Origin: Acidobacteriota bacterium
Lineage (GTDB): Bacteria > Acidobacteriota > UBA890 > WLXD01
Length of the DNA: 64,000 bases
Reading direction: 5' to 3'
Assembly (NCBI GenBank): GCA_965248695.1
Contig: CBDFKD010000002.1
Location: forward strand, 2,816,001 to 2,880,000
How positions within the stretch are numbered: position 1 is the stretch's first letter; the number at the start of each line of letters is the position of its first letter. The translations under genes and the position numbers were made by a program. This document shows, piece by piece, positions 33,931-53,707 of the stretch. The notes below the pieces were generated by a model, which saw nothing but the letters and a program-made list of their open reading frames with translations, made no database searches and was not told the DNA's origin.

Positions 33931-34174
33931 CCAGGTGGGTCCTCTCCCGAATAGTTCGCTAGGCAGGCACGTCCGACACCCGCGCCCGTCCGCCTGGGCC
34001 AAGGTGGGCGGTCATCTTAGTACATCGAGTTTGCACACGGGCGGCTCATGGTGGAGCCGGTGAGCTGACTCGCGCGGGGACTGGGAACCTCGCAGCCCAT
34101 CTCTGCCGCCGTGCTACTCGTACTTGGACCGGTTCATTGCGCCACCGCGAAGATCAGCGCCAACAGGCGCGCGA

Positions 34175-36157: not shown

Positions 36158-36237
36158 CAAGCTGGGTCCTTTCGCAGAGCGTGCCAGGGCGCGCGCAGAG
36201 GCCCCCAACCGAGTGATCTCAAGACCGATCGCTCATC

Positions 36238-39333: not shown

Positions 39334-39575
39334 TGATAGTTACCCTGCTGTGTTCATCAACGCCCTCGCCCAACACCTGTGCGGCGAAGCATGGCACCGA
39401 TGAATGCGGCGATCCTCCTCGAACTGAGCACGGCCACGGAGGAATCTTGACGTCGGTCGGGAGCGTAGCGAAGATTCATCCTATCTGGCAGTGTCCTCTC
39501 TGGCAGAGTTCTGTCCCGTCGGGGGCACCTACTAGACTGCCCGCATACCCTCGCCCAACCGAATCGGAAGAAACT

Positions 39576-40595
39576 ATGGCGATCCGCGGGAAGTCCTTCC
39601 GAGCGATCCAGAGCCGACTTACACGGTTCTGCGTCGCGACCGGTCACGCGGACCGTGCGTTCTTCCTTCTCCTGAGCTCCGGGCGGGCGATACCGGTGAA
39701 CGAGCTGCTCGCACCGAGGAATGTCGCGCGTCTTGCTTCCAGCGCACTGCGATATGGCCGACCGAGAATCCTGCGCATGCCCACGAACTTCAAGCTCAAG
39801 ATCAAGAACAATGCACAACTAGTCTACTCGGACACGTCCGGCAAGACCGGCGCTACCGATCGACGGCTCGTCTCCGCCAAGATCGGCCTTCCCTCGGAGT
39901 GGCGGACCGGCTCCCTGGCGCGTGAGATCAAGGCGCGGCAGATCCTGCGCGATTCCGATGCGGCTTCATTTTCCATGCCGACGTTGCACGGCTACGATCG
40001 ACAGAGCCTTACGTGGCTGGCAGAGGAGTTCATCGATGCCGATCCACAGGTCTCTCCGGATCAGAGATCGGCGATCTTCCTGGACAAGCAGGCTACTCGT
40101 TTCTACAAACAGTTCGCGCGGCCACGCCCCATCGCGGCTTTTCTGCGCAAGACCGGAATCGCCCCCGAGACCGTTCAGCAACTCTTGGACGATGCCACAG
40201 TGACGCTCGGCCCCGCCCACTCGACGGATACCTGGCCGGTCTCCTTGACCCACGGTGACCTCTCTACCGGCAACATGATCGCGTCCCACGACGGACGTCT
40301 GTATATCATCGACTGGGAGAAGTTCGGACGAGGACCGATCGCGTGGGATCTGCGCAAGCTGTATCGGAACAGCGTGACTTCCGTCCTCGACGTGCTACAG
40401 AAGACCAGCGCGGAGGGAGATGTCGCCCCCGCGATGCAGATGCGCCTCGTCTTTGCCGTCGAACTGGCGGTACTCCGCCGTGACCGAGATCAGAGGCTCG
40501 CCTACCTGAGGCGCCATGCGGGATTGAGCCGCACCGCGTCCCTCCGGAGGGTTCAGGATCAGGACAGGACCCTACGTGATCTAATCGCAGCCTAG
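39576..40595 (+). CDS. Aminoglycoside-phosphotransferase/kinase-like protein
   Basis: HGDLSTGN...IIDWE. Confidence 0.75.
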   Translation: MAIRGKSFRAIQSRLTRFCVATGHADRAFFLLLSSGRAIPVNELLAPRNVARLASSALRYGRPRILRMPTNFKLKIKNNAQLVYSDTSGKTGATDRRLVSAKIGLPSEWRTGSLAREIKARQILRDSDAASFSMPTLHGYDRQSLTWLAEEFIDADPQVSPDQRSAIFLDKQATRFYKQFARPRPIAAFLRKTGIAPETVQQLLDDATVTLGPAHSTDTWPVSLTHGDLSTGNMIASHDGRLYIIDWEKFGRGPIAWDLRKLYRNSVTSVLDVLQKTSAEGDVAPAMQMRLVFAVELAVLRRDRDQRLAYLRRHAGLSRTASLRRVQDQDRTLRDLIAA

Positions 40596-40664
40596 AGCGA
40601 TGTGGCACCGTCGGGTCAGGAACACAGCAGCTCGACGGTAGGTTCAAAACCAGACTCCAGGCGA

Positions 40665-41924
40665 ATGAGCATGGCTAGCACCACACAACCCTTTGTGCAG
40701 CGCACGCTGGAGGTGACGCTCGCCGGATTCTTGGTCGGTGTCGGCGGACTCTCCGCCGCCTGCAGCGCTCCACCCGATGCGGACGGCCCCGCAGCCAGCC
40801 TGTGGACCAACGGCGCTGACAACCGCAGCTGGGACGATCCAGACAACTGGGAACGGCGCATCCTGCCCGGGGTCGCCCGCGACGCGGATTTCCGCTCCTC
40901 GACACCTGCCATCGTCGACATCCAGCCAGGAGTCACCAACTCGGCGTTGGACCTCGAGATTCACGATGGCAGCCATGTGTTCGAGTTTCGGTCCGGCTCC
41001 TCCATCGAGATTGCAGACGAGGTGGAGATCGGTGATTCAGGCCCCGCCTCGCTGACGTTGAGGGGACCGGGGACCCTCGTCGGACACGCGGTTCAATTCA
41101 CCGTGGGCCACAAGGGCAGCGTCGACAACGTCGGGACCTTGAGGGTGGCGGGGGGTGCCACCATCGATTGGTCGAACGGATTTGTGCGCGTCGGACGAGG
41201 GCTGGAGGATCTCCCGATACCCGGCCACCTCGAGGTCGTGGCCGGCGGGAAGATGGTTCTGAACGGCAGTTCGCTGCAGGTGGGCCTCAACGGTCCTGGA
41301 ACGCTCGAACTGAGCGGTTCGCGCTCAATGATCTCTCTTGGCGGGGATCCCGACAGCGGTACCGGCGACCTACTGATTGGTACTGCCGCCAGCGGATCTG
41401 TGGTCGTCGAAGAACAGGCAGTGCTGAGCGGTATTGGCGAGCTCGTGGTCGGAAACGGGAGCTCGGCCAGTCTCTCCGTTCTGTCCGGTGGTTCTGTCCG
41501 AGTCACAGGCCCTCGGATTGCCGTCAACGGAGGTCAGGTCGCCGTGTCGGGTGGAGGATCGATTCTGGCCGGCGCCGGTACCGGCACGGCCCTGAGTATC
41601 GAGGCCGGCGGCTCCCTTTCACTCGCCGCAGGAGGGGTTGTGCAGGGTATCGGAAGCCTCTCTTTTGATTCCGAAGCCAGGTTCAACCTCTCGTTCGAAG
41701 CCGGCCCCGCTGGAGACGTGACCGTGAGCGGCGCGGTGAGCCTGAACGGGGCTCGCATTGTCGTTACCGGCGCGGGGGTCTCCGGCGAGGCCTATCCTGT
41801 TCTTCGCACCCAGGGCGACGATGTGATCAGCGGTCGTTTCAATGAAGAGGATCTTGCACCTGGGTGGTCCATCGAGTATCGGGACAGTCAGGTCCTCCTG
41901 CATTTCGAGTCTGCCGCGACCTGA
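40665..41924 (+). CDS. Gly-rich beta-repeat surface protein, putative lipoprotein (autotransporter-passenger-like)
   Basis: LSAAC lipobox-like motif, W...SWDDPDNW and repeated L.VG..G.G.L. Confidence 0.6.
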   Translation: MSMASTTQPFVQRTLEVTLAGFLVGVGGLSAACSAPPDADGPAASLWTNGADNRSWDDPDNWERRILPGVARDADFRSSTPAIVDIQPGVTNSALDLEIHDGSHVFEFRSGSSIEIADEVEIGDSGPASLTLRGPGTLVGHAVQFTVGHKGSVDNVGTLRVAGGATIDWSNGFVRVGRGLEDLPIPGHLEVVAGGKMVLNGSSLQVGLNGPGTLELSGSRSMISLGGDPDSGTGDLLIGTAASGSVVVEEQAVLSGIGELVVGNGSSASLSVLSGGSVRVTGPRIAVNGGQVAVSGGGSILAGAGTGTALSIEAGGSLSLAAGGVVQGIGSLSFDSEARFNLSFEAGPAGDVTVSGAVSLNGARIVVTGAGVSGEAYPVLRTQGDDVISGRFNEEDLAPGWSIEYRDSQVLLHFESAAT

Positions 41925-41987: not shown

Positions 41988-42923
41988 CTAGTCGTCAGCG
42001 GGGCCTCCGAACGAAGCACTTCCGTGAGCGTACGCGTTGCAATTGTGGCGCGGCAACGCGTAGCGAGCCGACTCGGCAATCGGCGTGTCGATGTCGGCAT
42101 CTTCGACGGCGAACGCGAACGGATGTCCGGCCTCCGCCACAACCCTCTCGGAGGTCTGATCGAAGGCCTCGTGGATCCCATGCGGATAGCAGTACCCCCA
42201 ATCGAGATGGCCAACGAGCGACTTGATGAGATCGCAGGAAGCTTCGACCTCCCGCCTCTGGGCGTCCTCTTGCAGGTGGCTGAGGATGGCATGGCTGAAG
42301 CCGTGACCGCCTACTCCCATGCCTGCCTCGCAGAGATGCCGCACATCAGCATCGTCCAGGTAGAGCGTCCGCCATTCAGGCAACGTTCCCTCGAAGGCGT
42401 AGTCGAACAAGCCTCGAAGCGCCTCGCGGCGCGACTCTGAAGAGAGCTCCCAGTTGAACAGCCGCTTGATGCGCTTCGTCGGCGTGTCCGAGGGCTGTCC
42501 GACGTAGTGACCCATCCGAGCCTTGTCGATCTCCGGGAGCAGCTCTGGGTGGGCCGCGCGGACCCAGTCGAGGGCTTCGGCGCCACCCAGTCGCCCTACT
42601 GCGAGATGCAGCTTGTGGACATCGAGGAACTCGCCCGTCGTGATGGGACCAGCCGGCACATAGAAGATGCCGAAGATCTTCCTGGCCTGCAGTGCCGGCA
42701 GGACATGGGCGACGTGATCACGGAACCCATCGTCGAACGTCAGCAGCACTCCGGACGGCGCCGCACCTCCGGCAGTCCACTTCTCGAAGGAGTCCCGGTC
42801 AACGAATCCGTACACCTCGGCAAGGTAGTCGAGCTGCTGCTCGAAATGCCGTCTTGCCAAGTACGGAAAGTGCGGAAGACCTGGAGCACTAGGTCGCACG
42901 TAGTGGTACATCAGCGGCTTCAT
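41988..42923 (-). CDS. Polysaccharide deacetylase
   Basis: MYHYVR, LTFDDG, GGHGFSH and YCYPHG motifs. Confidence 0.9.
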   Translation of the reverse strand: MKPLMYHYVRPSAPGLPHFPYLARRHFEQQLDYLAEVYGFVDRDSFEKWTAGGAAPSGVLLTFDDGFRDHVAHVLPALQARKIFGIFYVPAGPITTGEFLDVHKLHLAVGRLGGAEALDWVRAAHPELLPEIDKARMGHYVGQPSDTPTKRIKRLFNWELSSESRREALRGLFDYAFEGTLPEWRTLYLDDADVRHLCEAGMGVGGHGFSHAILSHLQEDAQRREVEASCDLIKSLVGHLDWGYCYPHGIHEAFDQTSERVVAEAGHPFAFAVEDADIDTPIAESARYALPRHNCNAYAHGSASFGGPADD

Positions 42924-42984
42924 CACACACGGTCCCGTCGCATGGAGGTCTCGCCCGCCCGGGCGCCGACCGAAGATAGCCAAG

Positions 42985-45249
42985 CTACTCTACGAAGACT
43001 TCCTCTCCTGCCTCGATGGCGTCCAGGACCATGCGCGCGATCTCAGGACGCATGAACCAATCCGGAGGCGCCTCGCCGCGCTGGAACCTGCTGCGAGCCT
43101 CGCTGCCGCTGATGTGGAGTTTCTCGTTGTCGGCGTGATGGAGAGTCCCGTCTTCTTCCATGTGGGCCCCGTGTTTCCGGGAATAGAAGACCGAATCGAA
43201 CTTGACCACCTCAATTCCCAGGTCGGGAAACCTGTCGAAAATCTCGTGCGAGGCGTGCGGATCGTACGACGTCCCGGCGCCTGTATGGTCCCTACCAACG
43301 ATGAAGTGCGTGCAACCGAAGTTCTTCCTGCATATTGCCGTGAAGACCGCCTCGCGGGGCCCTGCGTAGCGCGAGAACGTCGACAGCGTGGCGAACACCA
43401 CTTTGTCCTTCGGATAGCAGTGCTGGACCATGTACTCGTAACTCTTGACGATGTACTCGTTGCGAAAATCACCGCTCCGCTTCTTACCGATTACTGGATG
43501 GACGAACAGTCCGTCGCAGTGCTCTTTCTCGAGCGCCGCAAGCTGAATGTACTCATGGCTCCGATGGATCACATTCCGCGTATGAAAACCGACGACCTTG
43601 GTCCACATCCGCTCGCTGAACAACCTCCGAACCTGCCGCGGAGTCAACTCGTACCCCCTGTGATCCGAGATACTCCTCCGGAAGAGGCTGATCCGTCCCC
43701 CGAGGAAGAACGGCTGCAGCGCTAGCGCCCATGCCACACCGGGGTGCGCGGTGTCCGTCGTTCCATAGATCTTGTCGCAGAAACGCTCCCTATCGAACAG
43801 GTAGCTGTCACTGACGTCCAGCGTCCCGACGATGCCCTCGTCGTCGGCTAAAGCGACGGTGTCGCCGGACGCGATCTGGTCTGCGGTCTCCTTGTCCACA
43901 TCCAAGACCAGTGGGACTGTCCACAGGACGCCCGAAGGAAGCCGCATGTCATCGAGCACGCCGCCGAGCTCGCTCTCGGTCATGAATCCATCCAGCGGAC
44001 TGAACGTTCCGATGGCGATTTGCTCGAGGTCCATCAGCTGGTTGGCGTTCAGCACTATCTTCTGCAGCGAGTCCAGCTGAGCGCTCCCGCCGGCGGGCTC
44101 GCCTACGAGTCGATCAACGAGGATACCCCCGTGCGGCGCCACCAACGTGGAGCCGCTGGCATCGTCGAGGAGATAACGGATGTCCCGAGGCTGCTTCGCT
44201 CCGGGTACCTGCTCGATCCCTTCGAGAATCCGCTGCGCGTCAACCGCCCGGACCTGCTCGAAGAGCTTGTTCATCATCGACACACACTCCATCGGGAATC
44301 TTCCGATCGCGGTCTCGGCGGAGAGAATGACCCCGCTCGCGCCATCGAGCAGCGTGGCAATGACGTCATGCACTTCCGCTCGGGTGGGCCTGTTCTTCGC
44401 GACCATCGTTTCCAGGAGATTGGTCGCGACGAACACGTCTTTGCCCATCCGGGCTGCACGCCCGAGGACGATCTTCTGCGCGATCGGGACCTTCTCGATC
44501 GGGATCTCTTTGCTGAGGTCACCACGATCCAGCAGGAGAGCGTCCGACGCTTCGATGATCTCATCGAGTCTTTGTAGCGCGTCGGTACACTCGATCTTGG
44601 AGATGATCCTCATTCTTGATTGCGTCGCTTGGCGTACTGCGTCAACCGATGCGCCACCACGGACGAATGACACGGCAATGTCCTCTACGTTCGCCGCCAA
44701 GCCGATCTCGATCGATTGATAGTCCTTCTCGGACAGCGGGGGAAGGGCGAGTCGCCTGTCACCAGACGCCTCGATCGCCACCGCTTTGTTGCTCCCCAAG
44801 CTCCCGGACGTCAGCGCCTTGGCGCGAATATGACCCTTGCTGCTACTGCTGGTGTCGAGAACCCTCAAGATGAGCGACTCGAAATCCACGTACAGGAGAT
44901 CTCCCTCTTCGAGCTGCTCCACGACATGACTCGGGTGCAACGAGATTCCCTGCTGATCTCCCATCACCTCCCGCGTGAGGATCCTCAGATCGTCTCCCTC
45001 CCGAAGCTCCAATGACCCTGTGCGAACGCGCCCCGAGCGCACCTGCGAGCCCTCGGTATCGATGATGAACGGAATTCCGACTTTCTTCGAGAGATCGATT
45101 GACCGTTGCAGATCGTCCAGGCTCGAATGCGACATATTGACGCGGACGAAATCCACGCCCTTGTCTTTGAGCTTCCGCAGGGCAGCCTCGGTATTCGTCG
45201 CAGGCCCGAGCGTGACGATGAGCTTTGGCTTTCTCCACATACGATTCAT
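42985..45249 (-). CDS. Pyruvate kinase-like domain fused to sulfate adenylyltransferase (Sat)
   Basis: N-terminal TLGP, RVNMSH, SFVR, ISKIE, DRGDL, PTRAE and LSAETAIG; C-terminal PHGG, FSPLDGFM, HTRNVIHRSH, YAGPREA and FIVGRDH; one uninterrupted ORF. Confidence 0.92.
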   Translation of the reverse strand: MNRMWRKPKLIVTLGPATNTEAALRKLKDKGVDFVRVNMSHSSLDDLQRSIDLSKKVGIPFIIDTEGSQVRSGRVRTGSLELREGDDLRILTREVMGDQQGISLHPSHVVEQLEEGDLLYVDFESLILRVLDTSSSSKGHIRAKALTSGSLGSNKAVAIEASGDRRLALPPLSEKDYQSIEIGLAANVEDIAVSFVRGGASVDAVRQATQSRMRIISKIECTDALQRLDEIIEASDALLLDRGDLSKEIPIEKVPIAQKIVLGRAARMGKDVFVATNLLETMVAKNRPTRAEVHDVIATLLDGASGVILSAETAIGRFPMECVSMMNKLFEQVRAVDAQRILEGIEQVPGAKQPRDIRYLLDDASGSTLVAPHGGILVDRLVGEPAGGSAQLDSLQKIVLNANQLMDLEQIAIGTFSPLDGFMTESELGGVLDDMRLPSGVLWTVPLVLDVDKETADQIASGDTVALADDEGIVGTLDVSDSYLFDRERFCDKIYGTTDTAHPGVAWALALQPFFLGGRISLFRRSISDHRGYELTPRQVRRLFSERMWTKVVGFHTRNVIHRSHEYIQLAALEKEHCDGLFVHPVIGKKRSGDFRNEYIVKSYEYMVQHCYPKDKVVFATLSTFSRYAGPREAVFTAICRKNFGCTHFIVGRDHTGAGTSYDPHASHEIFDRFPDLGIEVVKFDSVFYSRKHGAHMEEDGTLHHADNEKLHISGSEARSRFQRGEAPPDWFMRPEIARMVLDAIEAGEEVFVE

Positions 45250-45289
45250 GCTGTACGCCGTCTGGCTCTGTTTGCCGTGGGTCGGTGCC

Positions 45290-46198
45290 TCAGATTTCCA
45301 CTTCGTATTTTTCGAAGACCTGGCCCCGCAAATCCGTCGTGGCCGCGTCAATTGCCTGTGCTAGATCCGCGGCAATGTGGTGCCGCCAATCGCCAGCCAC
45401 GCCCTTGCGCATGGATTCGCCTCGATCTTCCTCACCGCGCTTTCGGGAACCGTTCTCCGCATGTCGGCGAGTCATTTGCTCGAAAGAGGCGGCGTGGACC
45501 ATCTGTTCAACGACCGCGCCCGTGGCCTCTACTTCCAGGTAGTCGAGGACGCCCCTGGTAACCTCGAGCGGACTGGTGGACATCCGTTCATAGGTGATGC
45601 AGTGCACGCTTCCAGCGTATTCCAGTAGGGCCTCGTACTCCTTGATGATCCTGCTCTCCAAGTATTCGTGGGCGAACGCCGAGGTTATCTCTCGTTCCTT
45701 TTTTCTGCCCTTCCGCAGATTGCTGAAATGCCAGGAAGTGAGCTTGTCTTTGGGGTCTCGGATACAACAGATCTTCTTGATGGAGGGATAGAACGAGTCG
45801 ATGAAGTCGAGATGAAAAGTGTACGCGGGCGACGATTCACCCACTAGCGCCTTGTCGCCGCGTTGCTCGTCGCAATAGTCGCTATAGCGGTTCACCATCA
45901 GGCGGTAGAACTCCGCCTTCGAAACCTCGTCGGCAAGCGGAATGAGGTCGGCGAACACCTTGCCGAACTTGGTCAAATAGTCAGAGAGGGGGCGTACGAA
46001 CCGGTCCGCAGTATCCGGCTCGAGGCTGGCAATCGTGTTGAAGAAGTGGACCTCACCGGCGCGGCGCTCGTGGGCAGTGACCATGAACGGCAGGCTCGGG
46101 AAACTCGCAATGTTCGGATGCTCGTTCAACGTCGCAGACGTCCACAGCGTTCCGCTACGCTCGTGTCCGACGATGAGGAAGTCGGGGCGCAATCTCAT
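45290..46198 (-). CDS. PAPS-dependent sulfotransferase
   Basis: GHERSGT 5'-PSB loop, RDPKD...S 3'-PB and RKGVAGDW. Confidence 0.88.
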   Translation of the reverse strand: MRLRPDFLIVGHERSGTLWTSATLNEHPNIASFPSLPFMVTAHERRAGEVHFFNTIASLEPDTADRFVRPLSDYLTKFGKVFADLIPLADEVSKAEFYRLMVNRYSDYCDEQRGDKALVGESSPAYTFHLDFIDSFYPSIKKICCIRDPKDKLTSWHFSNLRKGRKKEREITSAFAHEYLESRIIKEYEALLEYAGSVHCITYERMSTSPLEVTRGVLDYLEVEATGAVVEQMVHAASFEQMTRRHAENGSRKRGEEDRGESMRKGVAGDWRHHIAADLAQAIDAATTDLRGQVFEKYEVEI

Positions 46199-46403: not shown

Positions 46404-47126
46404 TCAGAGGGCATCCGAGGATGCCTCTGTCGCCAGCCATTCGGCCAACCGGAGCTCGAATGGATCGTCAATGTTGACGACCGGACGCTTCACGATCACG
46501 GCGGCCGCGTCGCAATCGATGATCCGACCCTCGTCGAGCAGGTGGCGCCGGGTCACCGAGTAACAAAGACCGTTGCGGTGATAGTACTGCGGCACGCTTT
46601 GCCGCAAGCTGTGTTGCGAGCCGTCTTCACGGTAGAAGCCGATCAGCCCATCGTCAGACACAGTCAGGGTCTTGTGGGGAGTGTAGTGCGCCGGCGTGGG
46701 ACTCACCGTCGCAGCCGCCGGATGCCCTCCGTCGACCATGGTGCGCACCGTGCGCTCGACGTCCTCCGGACGACGCAGCGGACTCGTAGGCTCCAGCAAC
46801 ACGGAGATCTCGAAGGTCCGGCCCCAGTGCTTCTCCGCCTCTAGCCAGGCATGCCTCCAGGTCTCGACGGAGCCAGCGCGATCCCCGGAAAGTTCAGCAG
46901 GACGGAGGAACGGGACCTCCAGCCCGTGATCCCGACCCTCTGCGGCAATCTCTTCGTCGTCTGTCGAGAGCAGCCGCGCATCGATCCACGGCAGCGCCGC
47001 GGCCGTTCTCGCGGCCCGGGCAACCAGCGACAGACTCGCAACGGTGCACAGGTTCTTTCTTGGAATGCTCTTCGACCCGCCGCGCGCAGGTACGACGGCG
47101 AGCACCGCGAGTCCCTCCGGCGTCAC
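46404..47126 (-). CDS. neuA: Acylneuraminate (CMP-nonulosonate) cytidylyltransferase
   Basis: PARGGSKSIPRKN, STDD, PFLRP and EPTSPLR motifs. Confidence 0.88.
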   Translation of the reverse strand: MTPEGLAVLAVVPARGGSKSIPRKNLCTVASLSLVARAARTAAALPWIDARLLSTDDEEIAAEGRDHGLEVPFLRPAELSGDRAGSVETWRHAWLEAEKHWGRTFEISVLLEPTSPLRRPEDVERTVRTMVDGGHPAAATVSPTPAHYTPHKTLTVSDDGLIGFYREDGSQHSLRQSVPQYYHRNGLCYSVTRRHLLDEGRIIDCDAAAVIVKRPVVNIDDPFELRLAEWLATEASSDAL

Positions 47127-48136
47127 GGCGTGGCTGCCTCGGCGCCGAGCTCGACGACGCGCCCTTCAGCGCTGCTGGCTCGAATAGCCTCGACGATTCG
47201 CATCACTCTCGCTCCATCGTCCAACGTACACGTACTCGGCTCGGAGCCCGCGATCACGTCCAGGAACTCGCGCGCCACGGCGACGAACATGTCGTTTCGT
47301 TCGCACGTGAAGACTTCCTCCTGCCACACCTGCTTCCATTCGTGGCCGTACGCAATGCGATTCGGCTCGGCTGACCAAACGAGCGTCCCGTCCTCGCCGA
47401 GCAGACGGATGAACTTCTCGTGCGGCCGGCCATAGAGATCCAGATGCAGGGAGACTTGCAACGAGTCATAGGAGCACAGCGCATCCACGGTGTCGTCGGT
47501 GTCGATCTCGAGGTCGGACAGCTTCGCCACCCTTCCCAGAACCTCACGCGGCATGCCATGAAATCGGACCATCAAGTCAATCCAGTGACTTTCATCGAGC
47601 AAGGCGCCCCCACCCAAAGCTCGACTCGACATGAAGAACTCCTGATACGGCTCCCAGGGGTGCCAGTCCGCAAGGTGGGCCGACATGTGGAACTGAACGT
47701 GCCGTGGAGCTCCAATGACCCCGGCCGCGAGCAGGCTTCGAACGCGCTCCAGGGGCGGCCACCATCGCCAGCAGTACCCTAGAACCACGGGCGTGCCGGT
47801 GGCTTGCTGCGCCACCATCACTCGCTCGGCGTCGGACAGGGAGATTGCGACGGGCTTCTCCAGTAGCACCGGCAGCCGGTCGCGAAGCGCGGCGATCGTC
47901 TGATCGGGATGGAAGCTCGTGGGGGAGCAGATCGCGACGCCGTTCAGACCGCCGGCTCCGAGAGCCTCCTCCATCGTCTCGTGCGCGGCTTCGACCGCGA
48001 CCTCCGCGGCGAGCTCCTCTCGCCGATCTGCCCGTGGGTCGCAACACGAAATGCGACATCCCAGCGCCGAGAGGTTGCGCGCATGCCGTTGGCCCACGCT
48101 GCCGCTTCCGACGACAAGAATGTGCTGTCTCTCCAT
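47123..48136 (-). CDS. Gfo/Idh/MocA oxidoreductase
   Basis: GSGSVGQRH, EKP and GGGALLDESHWID motifs. Confidence 0.9.
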   Translation of the reverse strand: MERQHILVVGSGSVGQRHARNLSALGCRISCCDPRADRREELAAEVAVEAAHETMEEALGAGGLNGVAICSPTSFHPDQTIAALRDRLPVLLEKPVAISLSDAERVMVAQQATGTPVVLGYCWRWWPPLERVRSLLAAGVIGAPRHVQFHMSAHLADWHPWEPYQEFFMSSRALGGGALLDESHWIDLMVRFHGMPREVLGRVAKLSDLEIDTDDTVDALCSYDSLQVSLHLDLYGRPHEKFIRLLGEDGTLVWSAEPNRIAYGHEWKQVWQEEVFTCERNDMFVAVAREFLDVIAGSEPSTCTLDDGARVMRIVEAIRASSAEGRVVELGAEAATP

Positions 48137-48151
48137 CTGCGTTTCTGCCCG

Positions 48152-49696
48152 TTACCTGATACCTGCGACCATGCTCTCGTAGGCGTCCGAGTCGAACGGT
48201 ACCTCGATGAAACCCGGGCCCGACTCCGGGTTCCAAGCCGAGAGTGCTGATTCAACGGCACCCTGTGTCTCTGCCCTTGTCCCGGGAACCCCGAACGCGT
48301 CGAAACCGGCCACCCACGACCGTCCATCCATGACGAGCGGCGATTGTGTCAGCCCATCCCGTAGCGCACGGGTGCGTATCGATCCGAAGGCATTGTCAGT
48401 CATGAGGAGGACCAGAAGGGGTAGTCGATGACGGACGGCGATTTTCAACTCCGAAGGGTACATTCCGACGCTGCCATCGCCGAGCACTACGACGGTGGGT
48501 ACGGTGGAGTCGTGTAGTGCGGCACCGATAGCCATGGGCAACCCGGTTCCCATATAGCGAGCCTGTCCCGACATGAGGCACCAATCTGCCCGGCGGGCGG
48601 GCCAAGCATGCTCCCCGACGGTGCAGAAATACCCCGTGTCCATGACGAGCCTGACGGTTCCCAAGAAGCGTCGGTCCAGGGCCGCGAATACGCTTCCGGG
48701 CAAGAACCCCTGGCTCAGATGGGCATCAAGGTCGGCCAGTGCGCTGCGTAGGCGAGCGCCTCCCCATGCCTTGCCCTGGAGAGCGCCTGCGAGCTCCTCG
48801 AACGCCGAAGCGGGAAGACGAGCCGCGAACGCAAAGCCCTCGACGCCGGGAGTTGCAATGACCTCCACGTTGATCGCCGGACTGGCGAACGGCCGTACAG
48901 CAAGCAGTTCGCGCGCCGTCAGCCCGAGCCCGACCACCACATCGGCCTCGGGCAAGAGACTCGCCTCTGGAGTGAGCTCGAGCCCGCTCCCGGTGTAAAC
49001 GCCTGCCGCGTGTGCGAGCGTCTCGTCCACCAAGCCCTTGGCTGCGGCGGTGGAGAACACCGGGACCTCAAGTCGCGAGAGCTCCCCGCCCCAGTTCTGA
49101 CGGATCGCCAGGCTACCCGCGATGATCGCTGGCTTCCGCGAGCGGCGCACGAGATCGAGGCCCGTTCGGAGGTCGCCTGCCGGTCCCACTCCTGCTGCGA
49201 TTGGCGGCGCTATCGGTGCAGCGCCGTCGGCAAGTTCCAGCAGCACCGGGGCTGGCTCCTCCCGCTCCGCCAAGCTCGCCATCTCGTCGAAGCCCGTCCC
49301 TTCCGGCGTCAGCGAACCCACCGCCTTCGTCACTGCCGAGCACAGCGCTCGATGGTCCAAGCGCTTGTGGGCAACCCACGGCGGCGCTTCTGGAGCGACG
49401 GCCTCGGCGAGGTGCACTAGCGGGAACGATTCGAACCACGCGGCAGCCATTCCTGGCAGGGTGTTGGTAAGGCCAGGCCCCTTGATCGACAGAGAGACTC
49501 CGGCGCGACCGCTGAGCCGGCCGACGGTGGCGGCCATGAGCGCGCCACTGCCCTCGAAGTGCGTGAGGTGAAAGGGAACACCTCGCGCCTCCAGGGCGTC
49601 TATCAACGACAATGTCGCGCCGCTCCCCGGGATTCCGAAGACCTCGCGCACGCCTCGCGCGGTGATGTCATCGGCAAGCTGCTCGAACCGACTCAA
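48152..49696 (-). CDS. Thiamine-diphosphate-dependent enzyme (acetolactate synthase/decarboxylase family)
   Basis: VFGIPG, HFE, GPGLTN and GDGS...DN; TTG start overlaps the upstream TGA. Confidence 0.88.
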   Translation of the reverse strand: MSRFEQLADDITARGVREVFGIPGSGATLSLIDALEARGVPFHLTHFEGSGALMAATVGRLSGRAGVSLSIKGPGLTNTLPGMAAAWFESFPLVHLAEAVAPEAPPWVAHKRLDHRALCSAVTKAVGSLTPEGTGFDEMASLAEREEPAPVLLELADGAAPIAPPIAAGVGPAGDLRTGLDLVRRSRKPAIIAGSLAIRQNWGGELSRLEVPVFSTAAAKGLVDETLAHAAGVYTGSGLELTPEASLLPEADVVVGLGLTARELLAVRPFASPAINVEVIATPGVEGFAFAARLPASAFEELAGALQGKAWGGARLRSALADLDAHLSQGFLPGSVFAALDRRFLGTVRLVMDTGYFCTVGEHAWPARRADWCLMSGQARYMGTGLPMAIGAALHDSTVPTVVVLGDGSVGMYPSELKIAVRHRLPLLVLLMTDNAFGSIRTRALRDGLTQSPLVMDGRSWVAGFDAFGVPGTRAETQGAVESALSAWNPESGPGFIEVPFDSDAYESMVAGIR

Positions 49697-50655
49697 GCAG
49701 AGCCCTCGAGCGCATCCTTGATCTTGGCCGCCGCAACACGGCAAACGACCCGCACGGCGTCGGGACTGAAACCACCGCAATGGGGCGTGATCAAGAGGTT
49801 GTCATGCGAGCTTGCATAGGCCACCAGGGGATCGTCCCCGACGTCGGGCTCGGCCGCCAGGACATCGAGCCCCGCGGCAGCGATATGCCCCGAATTCAGA
49901 CCCCTCAGCAGAGCCGCTTCATCGAGGATCTGACCTCTCGAGGTATTGACAATGACGATACCGGGCCGCGCACGGGCCAGGAGATCTGCCGACACGAGCC
50001 CTTCGGTCTGCTCGGTCAGATGAACGTGGATGGAGACGAAGTCGGCGCGCTCGAACACTGCTTCCAGAGCCACCGGTTCGATGGTCTCGGGGAAATGCTC
50101 GACGAAGGGATCGTGTCCGATGACCTCCATGTCGAAAGCACGCCCATATCGGGCCATCCACGTCCCGATCCGTCCACACCCCACGAGCCCGAGGCACCTG
50201 CCCTTGAGCATTCGCCCGGGGAATTCCTCCCGATCCCAGCGACGCTCTCGGACGTGCCTGACCGCCCCGACCAAGTTGCGTGCACAGGCCATCAACAGGG
50301 CCCAGGAGAGCTCAGCCGCGGGGGTCAGCTCTTGGAGCACGTCCGGGTTGTCCCTGAGCGTCCGCACGACGATCCCGCGCTCGTCCGCCACGCTCTGAGA
50401 AATGTGATCCGAACCCGTTGTCGCGCACGAGATAATGCGCAGGCGGGATGCAGCTGACAGCATCGAATCGCTGATACGGACCTTCATGGATGCGTCGAGA
50501 AACCCCTCGGCGAGAACCAGGGCAGCAGCGACTGCGGCGGGTTCCGCCGCGATGTGCTGGACGTTGGCCACCGGCGTCAGCACCTCGGCCGCGGCCTCGT
50601 AGCCCTCGGTCGCACCGACGTACGCGACCATACGCTCGTCAGTATCGGAACCCAT
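49693..50655 (-). CDS. D-isomer-specific 2-hydroxyacid dehydrogenase (SerA-like)
   Basis: GCGRIG, NTSRG, LDV...EP and TPHCGG motifs. Confidence 0.9.
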   Translation of the reverse strand: MGSDTDERMVAYVGATEGYEAAAEVLTPVANVQHIAAEPAAVAAALVLAEGFLDASMKVRISDSMLSAASRLRIISCATTGSDHISQSVADERGIVVRTLRDNPDVLQELTPAAELSWALLMACARNLVGAVRHVRERRWDREEFPGRMLKGRCLGLVGCGRIGTWMARYGRAFDMEVIGHDPFVEHFPETIEPVALEAVFERADFVSIHVHLTEQTEGLVSADLLARARPGIVIVNTSRGQILDEAALLRGLNSGHIAAAGLDVLAAEPDVGDDPLVAYASSHDNLLITPHCGGFSPDAVRVVCRVAAAKIKDALEGSA

Positions 50656-51482
50656 TAGCCAACCGGCTCAGGCCAGGCCAACGCTCGCTCACCGAGGCAG
50701 TACTGGAGCGTGGCTCGATTCGCCTCGCCAAGCGGTGCCTCCTGGAGCTCGAAGACGGTCACGTCTGCTGGCCCTGCCGGTTCAAACTTCCAGTTCCGGT
50801 AGAGGTGGGCGGCGAGGAAGCGACTCGTGGCGGTGCGCCCGTCGACGATGACGAGCGCTCCGGGCAAGAGCAACGGCTCGATGCGCGCCACGTCGGCGGA
50901 CATCACAACGTAGTCTGGGCAATCCCACGAGACGTTGGCGACATCGCCGTCCACAGCTGCCGGGTCGGGGCCGTCCAGATAGATCAGATCGGGCAGGACG
51001 GCCGGCAGTCGGTCGTAGTAGTGACAGACGCGCCCTTGGAAGGTTCCCGCTGTCGCACCTGAGTGGTGCATCGTGACGAAATCACCAAGGCGTGAGGGAA
51101 GCATCTCCTTCGTGCGCTCGATCCAAGTCTTCGACGTGTCGACAGCGTGCAATTCGAAAGGGGTGGAGTTGCGGAGAACCGGCGGGCTGGACAGACGATC
51201 CCAGTCGCTACGATTCTTCAACAGTGCATCAGCCATCACCACGGTCGAATAACCGAGGCCGAACTCCAGAATCGTAAGGACCCGCCGCTGACGGACCACG
51301 GCGTGCAAGCGTGCGAGATCCGGATAGCTGGGCCGAATACGTTTCGCGTCGCCCTCGCGACCCTCCAGCACCTCCAGGAGACCTTCTCCGCGTAGGTACT
51401 CGAGCGCCCCAGCCTCTCCGTCGGCTGAAAACAACGCGGCGACCTCGCGAGGCCCCAATCCAACCTCACTCACTTGCGTCAA
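50655..51482 (-). CDS. Methyltransferase-fold hypothetical protein
   Basis: ILEFGLGYST, LHAVD, IYLDGP and IVDGR. Confidence 0.65.
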   Translation of the reverse strand: MTQVSEVGLGPREVAALFSADGEAGALEYLRGEGLLEVLEGREGDAKRIRPSYPDLARLHAVVRQRRVLTILEFGLGYSTVVMADALLKNRSDWDRLSSPPVLRNSTPFELHAVDTSKTWIERTKEMLPSRLGDFVTMHHSGATAGTFQGRVCHYYDRLPAVLPDLIYLDGPDPAAVDGDVANVSWDCPDYVVMSADVARIEPLLLPGALVIVDGRTATSRFLAAHLYRNWKFEPAGPADVTVFELQEAPLGEANRATLQYCLGERALAWPEPVG

Positions 51483-52680
51483 CGGCGGCGATGGGAGATC
51501 CGGAGGAGCTCTCCGCGTCGAGGTACGTCAACGTCTTGCCGACCCTCAGTGGCGCCGAAGCTATGACCTCGGCGATGCGCGCGCCGGCGGCGCCGTCACC
51601 GAACATCAACGAGCGCTCGTGGCGACCGTGCGCCATCTGGTGCTCGATCGCCGCGCCGATCGCATCTGCTTCGTGCGGAACATCCATGACGTTCTCGGCT
51701 CGTTCGCGGCCGTGTTGTCGACTGCCGATATTCACGCATGGGGTACCGAGGAAAGCTCCCTCACGAAGCCCTGAGGAGGAGTTGCCGACGACGCACACGG
51801 CGCTGCGCAGGAGCCGAGCGTAGTCTTCCGCCGAAAAGTGACGGTATAGCCTCAGGTAGTCGGGCTGGTGCTTCTCACGAAACACGCGCAACCCCTTCGA
51901 GATGTCGTCGGATCCGGCATCGACGTTGGGCCACAGCCAGACGACCTGGGTGCCCTGTCGCCCGATCCGACCCACCGCCTCGAGCGTCTGGGCGACCTGG
52001 TCCAGCCCCTGGCCGTACTCCGTGGTCACGGGATGCTGAAGAACGATCATGTACGGCTTGGTCGAATCGAGCTCCGCCCCGACGCCGCCGGGCCGCTCGA
52101 AGATATCCGCCGGCAGAGTAAGGTCGTTGTCGACAAGAAGGTCGAGAGAGGGACATCCGGTGAGGTGCACGGTGTCGGGATCCTCTCCGAGGCGAAGGAG
52201 GAAATCCCGAGCACGTTGGGTAGCGGGGAAGTGCAGGTGCGACAGCTTGGTGACAGCGTGACGCACGCTCTCATCGATCGAACCAGTTACCTCGCCGCCC
52301 TGAGTGTGGGCAACGGGAATGTTCATGTAGCTCGCCGCAATGGCGGTGGCAATCGTCTCGAACCGATCCGCAACGGTGAGCACGACGTCCGGTCGCAGGT
52401 TGTCGAAGTGGGTCGCCAGCTCGACGATTCCCAGGCCGGTTGATTTCGCCATTGTCGTCGGCGTCTCGCCTTCGACGATCGTGTGCACGACCCTGTCCGG
52501 TTCGAACCCGTCTTCCCTGATCAGGTCGACGACTCGGCCGAAGCGATACAACAACGCCGAGGCGCCGACAATGAGCTGTAGCTCGAGGTCCGAGCGAGCC
52601 TGGGCGGCCTCGAGGAAGCTCTTGATCCGAGCATAGTTCGCGCGGCTGTTGACGATCGCGCAGACCTTACGTGTCGGCAT
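51466..52680 (-). CDS. neuC: UDP-N-acetylglucosamine 2-epimerase (hydrolysing)
   Basis: SRANY, ADRFE, HTQGGE, DESVRHAVTKLSHLHF and GNSSSG motifs. Confidence 0.9.
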   Translation of the reverse strand: MPTRKVCAIVNSRANYARIKSFLEAAQARSDLELQLIVGASALLYRFGRVVDLIREDGFEPDRVVHTIVEGETPTTMAKSTGLGIVELATHFDNLRPDVVLTVADRFETIATAIAASYMNIPVAHTQGGEVTGSIDESVRHAVTKLSHLHFPATQRARDFLLRLGEDPDTVHLTGCPSLDLLVDNDLTLPADIFERPGGVGAELDSTKPYMIVLQHPVTTEYGQGLDQVAQTLEAVGRIGRQGTQVVWLWPNVDAGSDDISKGLRVFREKHQPDYLRLYRHFSAEDYARLLRSAVCVVGNSSSGLREGAFLGTPCVNIGSRQHGRERAENVMDVPHEADAIGAAIEHQMAHGRHERSLMFGDGAAGARIAEVIASAPLRVGKTLTYLDAESSSGSPIAAVDASE

Positions 52681-53707
52681 CCAGGTCCTCCCAGCGAAGC
52701 AACCTTGCGGGCTCCACGTCCCGCGCCAGGCGTCGGCCAATCAGGTCGTCGAGGGCGTCGGCAGAGATGCCGGTCGCCGGTTTCTTGAACGCGAGCATCT
52801 CGCGAGTCAATCGCGTGCCGGCGGCAAGCGGCCTCGCGGGCGCCACACTCTTACCGAACATCTCACGTGTTTCTGTGAGCAATTCTGCAATCTCATCCTT
52901 GTCCACCGGACGAGTGTCCATCTCGTGGAACGCATCTCGGGCACGCACAAGCTGTGCCAGCTCGTCGAAGGTGAGCGAGGCGGTGACATCCGGACCGAAC
53001 ATCGCTCGATCGAAAGTCACATGAACTTCGATCATCCGCGCCCCGCGAGCCAGTGCTGCAAGCGCAGGATACGGGGTACCGGAATGGTCAGAAAGCCCTA
53101 CCGGGCAACCGTACCGTGCGCTCATGTCCGCGAGCGCGTTGAGGCCTACGGCATCAAGCGGCGTCGGATACTGACTGGTGCACTGGAGCAGCAGGAACTC
53201 GGCGTCGCGCTGGCGCAGAAAAGCGACCACGCTATCGATGTCCGCCCAGCTGCTCATCCCGGTGCTGACCAGGATCGGGCCTCCTGCGACGAGCATGTCC
53301 TCGATCAAATCGCGACCGCGCACTTCCCCGGAGCCGACCTTCCAGGCAGGCACCCCGAGATCACGGAGCAGCTGCACCGCCTCCCGTGAGAAGGGCGAGC
53401 TGAGAAAATGCAGGCCGCGCCGGCGCGCGTGATCCGCCAGCTGTGCCCATTGCTCCGTCGAGAACTCCATGCGCTGCCAATAATCGTAGCGGCTGGCGTC
53501 CTGGGTACTGAAGCGCACCCGGAACGGCTCATCCAGCGTCGACTCGGCGGCCGCGATATGCGTCTGAAATTTGACCGCATCGGCGCCAGCATCGGCCACA
53601 GCGTCGACAAACGCGTGCGCTGTGCCCAGCGACCCGTCATGCGCCTGCGCCACTTCGGCGACAAGGATCGGCTTGCCCGAGGAGATGTCGAACGAAGGAT
53701 CTGTCAT
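52667..53707 (-). CDS. neuB: N-acetylneuraminate/nonulosonate synthase
   Basis: VAEVAQAHDGS, KFQTH, KVGSGE, STGMS, GLSDHS and a C-terminal SAF domain. Confidence 0.92.
   Translation of the reverse strand: MTDPSFDISSGKPILVAEVAQAHDGSLGTAHAFVDAVADAGADAVKFQTHIAAAESTLDEPFRVRFSTQDASRYDYWQRMEFSTEQWAQLADHARRRGLHFLSSPFSREAVQLLRDLGVPAWKVGSGEVRGRDLIEDMLVAGGPILVSTGMSSWADIDSVVAFLRQRDAEFLLLQCTSQYPTPLDAVGLNALADMSARYGCPVGLSDHSGTPYPALAALARGARMIEVHVTFDRAMFGPDVTASLTFDELAQLVRARDAFHEMDTRPVDKDEIAELLTETREMFGKSVAPARPLAAGTRLTREMLAFKKPATGISADALDDLIGRRLARDVEPARLLRWEDLDADT

Follow-up and report, generated by a model that had tools for sequence, protein, structure and literature searches.

Why should a pyruvate kinase (PK)-like domain be fused to an ATP sulfurylase (Sat) among the genes for a surface glycan? 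The question is raised by P0001, a gene on the minus strand (42985..45249) of a 64,000-nucleotide stretch of Acidobacteriota DNA, hereafter called the window. The synthesis of PAPS, the universal sulfate donor, is energetically uphill and strongly product-inhibited. The known natural remedies are pyrophosphatase, fusion with APS kinase (APSK), and the CysN GTPase. Here, we propose that the fusion is a module in which PEP fuels the return of ADP to ATP during the synthesis of PAPS and which thereby serves the sulfation of a sialic-acid-like sugar, an answer that we hold with more confidence than doubt.

Gene and domain architecture

The frame of P0001 is open over 754 aa in the translation of positions 42985-45249 of the window (minus strand), and the gene was assigned from this open frame together with Pfam and NCBIfam matches. 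The longest ORF (42985-45351, TTG start) would run at its 5′ end into the upstream sulfotransferase gene, whereas the ATG at 45249 matches the N-terminus of the family and was therefore favored as the start codon. Pfam placed the PK barrel at residues 6-323 (E 1.3e-72, positions 2-328 of the 328-position profile), PUA_2 at residues 371-524 (E 2.2e-43), and the ATP-sulfurylase domain at residues 533-742 (E 4.8e-76). It gave no match in P0001 to the C-terminal α/β (allosteric) domain of PK (PF02887, PK_C) or to the APS kinase domain (PF01583).

As delimited by Pfam and an AF2 model, the PK-like domain (residues 1-340; 44230..45249, minus strand) consists of the A barrel and the B lid (about residues 72-170) without the C domain. 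It is followed by a flexible linker (residues 344-371; 44137..44220, minus strand), in which pLDDT drops below 50 at residues 344-355 and 366-371. PUA_2 and the Sat catalytic domain occupy residues 371-754 (42988..44139, minus strand), as assigned from Pfam, a structure match, and motifs. The AF2 single-chain model had a pTM of 0.80 and a pLDDT of about 90 across the PK-like part. The translation and Pfam confirm the preliminary description of this gene as one ORF joining a PK barrel without the PK C-terminal domain to a complete Sat, and the motifs lie where they had been placed (DTEGSQVR, 64-71; DRGDL, 241-245; ATNL, 275-278; PHGG, 372-375).

Reality and distribution of the fusion

All of the 120 best matches among 5.8 billion proteins have the PK + PUA_2 + Sat architecture, so the architecture search that had been suggested for this gene revealed a family. 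Of the other 119 closest homologues, 19 also carry a fused APS kinase (PK-Sat-APSK). Single Logan contigs from three runs cover positions 42800-45500 with 0 differences, and a Logan contig from a fourth run spans 43260-44334, crossing the PK/Sat junction. Since the four runs were made from a single sample, probably the one behind the assembly itself, the independent support for the fusion is its recurrence in other assemblies. A search of sequencing runs listed none from RNA, a result that bears on expression in neither direction. An assembly artifact, a concern voiced when the gene was first described, is rejected, as the fusion recurs in the best database matches and contigs of four runs cover the junction.

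The PK domain of P0001 is matched by 2,693 representatives at E ≤ 1e-30. Among the best 150 representatives at 50% identity, 89 are fused to Sat and/or APSK; 84 were counted as PK-Sat (three of them also with APSK) and two as PK-APSK without Sat. Short stand-alone PK-like proteins make up 28 of the 150. The family ranges over CPR bacteria, DPANN archaea, Chloroflexota, Proteobacteria, and Planctomycetes, and it is widespread and apparently unstudied. No instance of the fusion turned up in 40 relatives, four of them from the same genus, or in 400 other species of the phylum of the window searched at E ≤ 1e-60, a cut-off at which the most divergent sequences of the clade might escape detection. 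Vertical inheritance is rejected because of this absence, and horizontal acquisition is likely. The GC content of the gene region shows a mild dip (0.587 against about 0.63 around it). A housekeeping PK and a Sat-CysC pair are encoded elsewhere in the same genome, and the fusion is an accessory paralogue.

The PK-like domain

The PK-like domain is about 33% identical to the E. coli and human PK structures, and Foldseek aligned it to PK structures with an rmsd of 3-4 Å over about 345 columns. The canonical PK residues R36, N38, S40, H41, D64, T65, R71, K155, K218, E220, D244, T276, and E312 are kept in the alignment, and they fit the canonical motifs R-x-N-x-S-H, D-T...R, K-x-E, G-D, A-T, and E-T across the clade. 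In PKs, the residues aligned here are catalytic, metal-binding, and phosphate-binding. The preliminary description had regarded the PK motifs as altered in a consistent way, and this is borne out as a family signature: T65, E66, G67, Q69, R71, D241, R242, G243, D244, A275, T276, and N277 are invariant in 32/32 aligned members. The clade-invariant changes beside the active site are E66, Q69, D241, S246, and N277, and position 310 is mostly Ala in the clade versus Ser in canonical PKs. In the B domain, the canonical DDG turn (Asp and Gly both 100% in 17 rows) becomes DF[N/D] in the linked clade, with Phe present in 92% of 85 rows. The whole clade signature reads TEGxQ, DRGDLS[KR], ATNL, and DF[ND]. 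Against the PK equivalog TIGR01064, P0001 scored 286.3 bits, below the cut-off of 306.4, and matched only positions 1-337 of the 476-position profile.

The PK phylogeny that had been called for was built with FastTree from 145 PK domains. The sample was taken from the best 150 matches to the PK domain of P0001, not at random, and the canonical rows include the PK of the same genome. The Sat-linked clade (121 rows) is set apart from the canonical PKs (20 rows) by branches with support values of 98 and 100, and the domain of P0001 does not group with the housekeeping enzymes.

Judged by residues and scores, the invariant changes near the active site and the bit score below the equivalog cut-off would count against reading the domain as a plain PK. 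Together with the separate clade and the loss of the allosteric C domain, they would suit a domain that transfers the phosphoryl group to another acceptor (another nucleotide of the pathway or a sugar acid), or one that has become a PEP/ADP-sensing regulator gating Sat. However, about 120 diverged members of the clade have retained all residues for phosphoryl transfer, metal binding, and the lid, which argues for PK-type catalysis. In three small genomes, whose assemblies may be incomplete, PF00224 is matched solely by the fused gene, which fits a real PK. The family is also linked to APS kinase, which releases ADP, and this suits ADP as the acceptor. We regard such a changed role as unlikely.

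The Sat half and its predicted docking

The Sat half scored above the cut-offs of two Sat models, NF003166/PRK04149 (411.8 versus 387 bits) and TIGR00339 (342.7 versus 322.95 bits), and below that of the bifunctional PAPS synthase model NF004040 (275 versus 669 bits). It is 40% identical to the M. thermolithotrophicus ATPS (8a8d; TMt 0.92), and it matched the Aquifex aeolicus structure 2gks with an E value of 4.9e-63. The Sat motifs appear as FHTRN (555-559), HRSH (562-565), and GRDHTG (652-657); that is, HxxH is intact as HRSH, QxRN reads HTRN, and GRDHAG reads GRDHTG. Stand-alone Sats have FQTRN/GRDHAG in 70/72 cases, versus the signature FHTRN/GRDHTG of the fused clade, in which His takes the Gln position of QxRN in 59 of 62 sequences. 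At position 637, Thr replaces a His that is 94% conserved. These changes of the Sat pocket are confined to the fused clade in a comparison with 72 stand-alone Sats. In yeast ATPS, Q195 forms a hydrogen bond with the sulfate of APS and the backbone NH of A293 binds a sulfate oxygen, so the Gln of QxRN and the Ala of GRDHAG are sulfate-contact positions there (PMC6607087). Because the sulfate pocket is altered at both (Q to H and A to T), sulfate is taken as the substrate of the Sat half from the genomic context.

For complex prediction, PK (residues 1-345) and Sat (residues 366-754) were given as separate chains with our own alignment. The predicted complex scored 0.73 versus 0.00 for the best control, with 91% or more of the contacts shared between runs and a pLDDT of the partners of at least 87. 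Among solved complexes, 116 of 157 attained the mark set for such predictions, as did 2 of 215 mismatches. A structure search found no solved structure spanning both halves. In the model, residues 83-86, 114-132, 146-148, and 160-165 of the PK B lid face residues 381-383, 413, 524-547, and 605-618 of Sat. Contact positions on the Sat side are mostly weakly conserved, and only some of them differ between fused and stand-alone Sats. Apart from F123/N124 of the PK domain, the interface showed no strong sign of co-evolution.

The predicted docking would be expected of a machine in which Sat serves as the anchor of the PK lid and PEP turnover or lid closure is directly coupled to uphill APS formation, either by handing nascent ATP to the Sat site (channeling) or by conformational coupling, as CysN drives CysD. 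The altered DF[N/D] turn falls inside the modeled interface, E66, S68, and Q69 are changed on the strand leading to the lid, and the remodeling of the Sat pocket (Q to H, A to T, and H637 to T) is restricted to the fused clade, all of which would accord with such coupling. On the other side, F123 is retained in PK-APSK and short stand-alone PK-like forms and may thus be a mere clade mark, and the poor conservation on the Sat side is not what a coupled interface would lead one to expect. Moreover, PK-APSK fusions work without this contact in cis, as does an unfused pair in another glycan locus (L076), where an ordinary Sat gene is directly followed by a full-length PK gene. Direct coupling of the two halves is, in our judgment, quite unlikely.

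Gene neighborhood and conserved partners

Immediately upstream of the fusion lies a sulfotransferase gene, P0271 (302 aa; 45290..46198, minus strand; PF00685, 9.3e-26), whose product is presumed to be the user of PAPS. Farther upstream and in the same orientation, Pfam and NCBIfam identified nonulosonic-acid genes (46404..53707, minus strand) that encode a cytidylyltransferase (NeuA-like), a GFO/IDH/MocA oxidoreductase, a ThDP enzyme, a 2-hydroxyacid dehydrogenase (2-HADH), a methyltransferase, NeuC, and a NeuB-like synthase. With NCBIfam models, NeuC scored 370 bits, above the cut-off of 236, and the NeuB-like synthase 284 bits, below the cut-off of 400. On the other side, the start of a polysaccharide deacetylase-family gene (41988..42983, minus strand; PF01522, 7.2e-13) abuts the stop codon of the fusion. 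With glycosyltransferases and an ABC exporter also flanking the gene, the surface-glycan locus reported earlier is real. Pfam detected neither APS kinase nor CysQ in the locus of the window.

Of eight related fused loci with flanks, seven have a sulfotransferase gene no more than three genes away from the fusion, and none was seen in the remaining locus, L051. The sulfotransferase of the window shares 60% identity with the fusion-adjacent sulfotransferase of L009 and 48% with that of L007. CysQ (PAP phosphatase) directly follows the fusion in L006 and L007, and cysC lies 1.8 kb downstream of it in L009. APS kinase is present in four of five fusion-host genomes and was not found in G003, a small and possibly incomplete assembly. 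Homologues of NeuC, NeuB, the cytidylyltransferase, and 2-HADH adjoin the fusion in L007 and L009, and the polysaccharide deacetylase family is also present in L007, L011, and L012. Linkage of the family to sulfur-activation genes is therefore conserved, with APS kinase and CysQ recurring beside sulfotransferases, and these partners (sulfotransferase PF00685, APS kinase, and PAP phosphatase) point to an O/N-sulfation route through PAPS. Grouping with housekeeping PKs and a lack of such linkage had been named beforehand as refuting outcomes, and both checks came out in favor of the description. That the PK domain substitutes for APS kinase is rejected as a general rule, given that APSK is fused in 19/119 homologues, adjacent in L009, and encoded in 4/5 host genomes as well as in that of the window.

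The ThDP enzyme and 2-HADH lie 3-5 kb upstream of the fusion. The former is acetolactate-synthase-like, although its best NCBIfam score (156.7 bits versus a cut-off of 509) is far below every curated cut-off, and no model of sulfopyruvate or phosphonopyruvate decarboxylase is among the best 25 of its 48 NCBIfam matches. It has no counterpart in 10 related loci (blastp, E ≤ 1e-8); L012 has a split ThDP enzyme of a different family. Of the ThDP, 2-HADH, and GFO neighbors, 2-HADH alone recurs, in L009 with 45% identity. A conserved role for the three is rejected on these grounds, and they are putative sugar-tailoring genes. The earlier suggestion that an enolate derived from PEP reacts with APS or PAPS, creating the C-S bond of 3-sulfopyruvate, which would feed a sulfonate pathway through the ThDP enzyme and 2-HADH, can appeal to these two neighbors and to their partial echoes in L009 and L012, but we dismiss it as highly improbable in view of the conserved PAPS-route partners, the character and isolation of the ThDP enzyme, and the intact phosphate-binding residues of PK, and we know of no precedent for sulfuryl transfer to a carbon enolate.

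Proposed mechanism of ADP recycling

In the preferred reading, a PEP-fueled recycling of ADP, the Sat half would convert ATP and sulfate to APS. APS kinase would then convert APS to PAPS with the release of ADP; here, this step would fall to the single cysC of the genome, located 1.6 Mb from the fusion, and in relatives to a fused or nearby-encoded APS kinase. The PK-like half would perform ordinary PK chemistry, PEP + ADP → pyruvate + ATP. Removal of ADP would relieve the dead-end ADP-APS complex of APS kinase, and ATP would be kept high at the site of sulfate activation. The net reaction would be sulfate + ATP + PEP → PAPS + PPi + pyruvate, after which the adjoining sulfotransferase would sulfate a nonulosonic sugar resembling sialic acid, or the glycan to which it belongs. 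The analysis shows the architecture, the family membership, the retention of catalytic residues, the conserved neighborhood, and a predicted docking of the PK lid on Sat; that both halves are active, that ADP accepts the phosphoryl group, and which sugar is the target are parts of this scheme that we infer.

The preliminary description had offered a supply of ATP from PK to Sat as one possibility. Its direction stands, as the PK residues are kept and the family is linked to APSK, CysQ, and a PAPS-type sulfotransferase, but not its exact form. Recycling of the ADP released by APS kinase is preferred because PK-APSK fusions without Sat exist and Sat makes no ADP. For the latter reason, the benefit in the two-domain P0001 would depend on the separate, distantly encoded CysC. 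A study on PAPSS1 reports that PAPS synthesis in vitro needed removal of ADP by PK/PEP, owing to a dead-end APS kinase-ADP-APS complex (PMC9885120). The adjacent, unfused Sat and PK genes of L076 are an independent second arrangement that speaks for the recycling scheme.

Significance and comparison with known systems

Searches of the openly accessible literature yielded no account of PK fused to Sat or to a PAPS synthase, in agreement with the earlier statement that no enzyme of this architecture has been characterized; the terms PAPS, adenylyltransferase, and pyruvate kinase are absent from PMC10483923. The PK-Sat fusion, often extended by APSK, would add another natural remedy for PAPS synthesis and mirror the PK/PEP regeneration module of chemists, and a compact PEP-driven PAPS synthase could serve biocatalytic sulfation. 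If the two halves were directly coupled, such a “PEP-driven sulfate activase” would be a third natural solution beside the pyrophosphatase/APS-kinase pull and the CysN GTPase. The family also marks prokaryotic gene clusters from which sulfated surface sugars of the nonulosonic-acid type would be predicted; a limited literature search yielded no prior description of these.

The closest known systems are compared as follows. The Sat-APSK PAPS synthases (2gks, NF004040; PAPSS1/2), like P0001, have a Sat of the homo-oligomeric type fused to another enzyme, and this Sat-APSK unit sits behind the PK domain in 19/119 other closest homologues. P0001 differs from them in lacking the APS kinase domain and in bearing an N-terminal PK core that is absent from the described ones. 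Stand-alone Sats (8a8d; Thermus thermophilus 1v47) share PUA_2 and the catalytic domain with P0001 (40% identity, TMt 0.92-0.93); P0001 keeps HxxH and RN, whereas it has His for Gln in QxRN, Thr for Ala in GRDHAG, and T637 for His. Housekeeping PKs (PykF/PykA; TIGR01064) and PKs without the C domain (NF005234) share the A barrel, the B lid, and the catalytic and metal-binding residues. In contrast to the housekeeping enzymes, P0001 has no C-terminal allosteric domain and belongs to a separate clade with fixed TEGxQ, DRGDLS[KR], ATNL, and DF[ND] motifs. CysDN and the laboratory PAPS cascades with PK/PEP address the same problem, in that the unfavorable, product-inhibited route to PAPS gains either an input of energy or a means of removing ADP. 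The fold of CysD is unrelated to Sat, and CysDN is coupled through GTP hydrolysis. The laboratory PK/PEP module is a mix of separate commercial enzymes, whereas P0001 is a natural fusion.

Domain architecture and integrity of the fusion gene

The gene at 42985-45249 (-) of the window is one open frame without interruption and encodes 754 residues. Pfam assigned a pyruvate kinase (PK) barrel to residues 6-323 (E = 1.3e-72, profile positions 2-328 of 328), a PUA_2 domain to residues 371-524, and an ATP-sulfurylase (Sat) domain to residues 533-742, and gave no match to the PK C-terminal domain in the protein. The preliminary description of a PK barrel fused to Sat without the PK C-terminal domain is thus borne out, and its motifs (DTEGSQVR, DRGDL, ATNL, and PHGG) were all located where it had placed them. 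In NCBIfam, the C-terminal half scored above the curated sulfate adenylyltransferase cut-off (NF003166; 411.8 versus 387), and the N-terminal half scored slightly below the PK equivalog cut-off (286.3 versus 306.4), matching only positions 1-337 of 476. A start at the TTG at 45351, which gives the longest ORF, would bring an overlap with the sulfotransferase gene upstream; the N terminus of the PK-Sat family is matched by the ATG at 45249.

All 120 best matches in a search of 5.8 billion proteins have the PK, PUA_2, and Sat domains, with 54-63% identity to the window protein, and in 19 of them an APS kinase follows at the C terminus. In each of three runs, a Logan contig covers 42800-45500 in one piece with 0 differences; in a fourth, a contig at 43260-44334 crosses the domain junction. 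The four runs derive from one sample, probably the source of the assembly, so that the independent evidence against an artifact is the recurrence of the architecture in other assemblies. With this recurrence and the contigs derived from reads, an assembly artifact can be dismissed. Confidence in the AlphaFold2 model is high (mean pLDDT 87.8, pTM 0.80) except for a linker at residues 344-371, where it is low. No solved structure covering both halves was found by sequence or fold (TMq at most 0.48).

PK half

Residues 1-345 were searched against 1.84 billion cluster representatives, giving 2693 matches at E ≤ 1e-30, and the 150 best were classed with HMMs cut from the family alignment. They comprise 84 PK-Sat proteins (three also with APS kinase), two PK-APS kinase proteins without Sat, for which Pfam agrees, and about 33 short proteins of 310-380 residues with the PK domain only. 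Canonical PKs of 470-480 residues enter the match list only from about E-54. The two PK-APS kinases (P0125 and P0201; 533 and 505 aa) are two-domain proteins whose PK domains bear the same clade signature. Other fusions among the matches are PK-PK-adenylate kinase (P0223, 1051 aa), phosphodiesterase-PK (P0253, 786 aa), PK-CBS (P0144, 478 aa), and NTP-transferase-PK-Sat (P0011, 1019 aa).

A FastTree analysis of 145 PK domains from the best matches and the genome's own housekeeping PK split a Sat-linked clade of 121 rows from 20 canonical PKs by branches with support of 98 and 100; because the sample consists of best matches to this domain, the tree shows separation, not the full PK phylogeny. 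Grouping with housekeeping PKs, named beforehand as the outcome that would speak against a distinct family, does not occur. In the alignment, the clade retains R36, N38, S40, H41, D64, T65, R71, K155, K218, E220, D244, T276, and E312, all the positions that align with PK residues serving catalysis or binding metal or phosphate. Its signature is [ST]-E-G-x-Q where canonical PKs have [TL]-x-G-P-[EK], D-R-G-D-L-S-[KR] where they have A-R-G-D-L-G-[VI], and A-T-N-L in place of A-T-Q-M. Position 310 is mostly Ala in the clade and Ser in canonical PKs. The lid domain has D-F-[ND] at the turn that is D-D-G in canonical PKs, the second residue being Phe in 92% of 85 linked rows versus Asp in 100% of 17 canonical rows. 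Since these differences are fixed across the clade, the consistent alteration of the PK motifs noticed earlier is a real clade signature, which leaves the residues that bear the chemistry untouched. In three small genomes, whose assemblies may be incomplete, PF00224 has no match but the fused gene; this would fit real PK activity.

Sat half

The Sat half shows 40% identity (TMt 0.92) to the ATP sulfurylase of M. thermolithotrophicus. The Sat domains of 62 fused proteins were set against 72 stand-alone Sats from the reference-genome loci. Fused Sats have FHTRN, GRDHTG, and SRYAGPR, and stand-alone Sats have FQTRN, GRDHAG, and MRYAGPR. The His of FHTRN is present in 59 of the 62 fused domains, and the Gln/Ala pair of FQTRN/GRDHAG in 70 of the 72 stand-alone enzymes. 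Position 637 is likewise class-specific (Thr in 85% of fused and His in 94% of stand-alone Sats). The two stand-alone exceptions are H/T-type Sats: one at L008:1046-2254 (FHTRN/GRDHTG, 60% identity to the window Sat half) and one in L018 (FHGRN/GRDHTG). No PK domain was found in the same ORF as either.

In the yeast enzyme, the APS sulfate is within hydrogen-bond distance of the QxRN Gln, and a sulfate oxygen is bound by the backbone NH of the GRDHAG Ala (PMC6607087). As the signature positions are sulfate contacts in yeast ATP sulfurylase, the alignments indicate that the sulfate pocket itself is remodeled in the fused clade. Higher sulfate affinity or altered APS inhibition would be possible consequences. 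That sulfate is the substrate of the fused Sat, we infer from context.

Glycan locus in the window

By Pfam and NCBIfam, the fusion lies within a minus-strand run of glycan genes. A PF00685 sulfotransferase gene ends 41 bases ahead of its start, and the start of a polysaccharide deacetylase gene abuts its stop. The run also contains a NeuB-like synthase (below the NeuB cut-off), NeuC (370 bits versus a cut-off of 236), a methyltransferase, a PGDH-like 2-hydroxyacid dehydrogenase, an acetolactate-synthase-like ThDP enzyme (542 aa), an inositol-dehydrogenase-like GFO/IDH/MocA oxidoreductase, and a NeuA/PseF-like cytidylyltransferase (PseF-like score below cut-off). At 46404-53707 (-), in a nonulosonic-acid operon, the ThDP enzyme, dehydrogenase, oxidoreductase, and methyltransferase genes stand between NeuB/NeuC and the cytidylyltransferase; they would be unusual tailoring genes. 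HERSGTLW and RDPKDKLTS of the sulfotransferase resemble the motifs with which PAPS-dependent enzymes bind the 5'-phosphosulfate and the 3'-phosphate.

Several other genes accompany the cluster. Two paralogs of about 680 aa at 31948-34002 and 34175-36208 (-) each combine a long N-terminal region with a sulfatase-superfamily domain at the C terminus. They match arylsulfatase and EptA-type phosphoethanolamine transferases weakly, and could transfer substituents to the same glycan or act on it as sulfatases. An AsnB-type amidotransferase lies inside the cluster at 37342-39333 (-) (top match, XrtA/PEP-CTERM system amidotransferase model, 577 bits, below the 817 cut-off). Two plus-strand genes at 39333-41924 break up the cluster; their products are 420 aa, containing an APH-type kinase domain, and 440 aa, without a Pfam or NCBIfam match.

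Elsewhere, the genome has one housekeeping full-length PK and, 1.6 Mb from the fusion, its one APS kinase gene adjoining the housekeeping Sat. The fusion is therefore an accessory paralog, and the locus relies on a distant cysC.

Related loci and origin

Nine fused loci were collected from reference genomes (L006, L007, L009, L010, L011, L012, L051, L069, and L085), eight with usable flanks. A sulfotransferase lies within three genes of the fusion in seven of these eight; none was found within that distance in L051. A CysQ-type PAP phosphatase gene directly follows the fusion in L006 and L007. The fused protein includes APS kinase in L006, L007, and L012; in L009, APS kinase lies 1.8 kb downstream. 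Five host assemblies were searched for APS kinase, and four have it; it was not found in the fifth, a 0.8 Mb archaeal assembly. L007 and L009 also have NeuB, NeuC, and a cytidylyltransferase alongside the fusion. The sulfotransferase of L009 (Parcubacteria MAG) shares 60% identity with the window enzyme, and that of L007 (Gammaproteobacteria MAG) shares 48%; the window 2-hydroxyacid dehydrogenase and NeuC are each 45% identical to their L009 counterparts. A sulfotransferase/PK-Sat/nonulosonic-acid cassette is thus common to very distant lineages. A second, unfused pairing occurs in a glycan locus of a Ferrovibrio MAG (L076:6511-9140), where a Sat gene comes first and a full-length PK gene adjoins its stop, in reverse order. 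That Sat is ordinary (FQTRN/GRDHAG), and the PK, with its C domain, has a mixed signature (DIPGRK, DRGDLS, and ATEM).

The fusion was not found in 40 relatives (four of the same genus), in which Sat (at most 45% identity) and PK (at most 39%) are encoded by separate genes only, and none of 400 other species of the phylum gave a PK-domain match at E ≤ 1e-60. The cassette is thus isolated in a 5.9 Mb genome, the phylum being otherwise without it among those searched. GC content dips mildly in the gene region (0.587 versus about 0.63). The fusion was likely acquired horizontally. An IS-type integrase (rve, rve_3, and HTH_21) at 30570-31598 (-), at the edge of the glycan cluster, fits a mobile origin of the region.

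Proposed mechanism

Here, we propose that the Sat half would make APS, which CysC would convert to PAPS with release of ADP. The PK half would use PEP to turn this ADP back to ATP, and the adjoining sulfotransferase would spend PAPS on the nonulosonic-acid sugar or its glycan. Of the earlier suggestion that PK supplies ATP to Sat, ATP regeneration stands; a push on the Sat step is less favored than ADP recycling, because ADP is the product of APS kinase, not of Sat, and because PK also occurs fused to APS kinase alone.

Complex prediction points to a specific contact between PK and Sat (ipSAE 0.73 versus 0.00 for the best of three controls; runs agreeing in at least 91% of contacts; partner pLDDT at least 87). 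Among solved complexes, 116 of 157 reach the mark for a contact; among mismatched pairs, 2 of 215 do. These counts are rough, since an alignment of our own was used. The predicted contact joins the PK lid domain to the first helix of the Sat catalytic domain, and the DF[ND] change of the lid lies inside this interface. Given this contact, a tighter coupling of the halves, by ATP hand-over or conformational coupling, is conceivable but unlikely. The further idea that the PEP-derived enolate attacks APS or PAPS to form a C-S bond (3-sulfopyruvate) found nothing in its support. The conserved partners of the fusion are those of the PAPS/sulfotransferase route, and the phosphate-binding residues of PK are intact. 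The ThDP enzyme is not conserved beside the fusion in the loci compared, and the NCBIfam matches listed for it include no sulfopyruvate or phosphonopyruvate decarboxylase.

Comparison with known systems

Many family members are present in public databases, named only "sulfate adenylyltransferase" or "pyruvate kinase," and no study of a PK-Sat fusion was found in the full-text literature outside subscription journals. A biochemical rationale for ADP recycling comes from a published in vitro cascade with human PAPSS1: PAPS was "practically missing" without a PK/PEP module, which its authors ascribe to a dead-end APS kinase-ADP-APS complex (PMC9885120). We class the fusion as a PAPS-synthesis enzyme with an added PEP-driven module.
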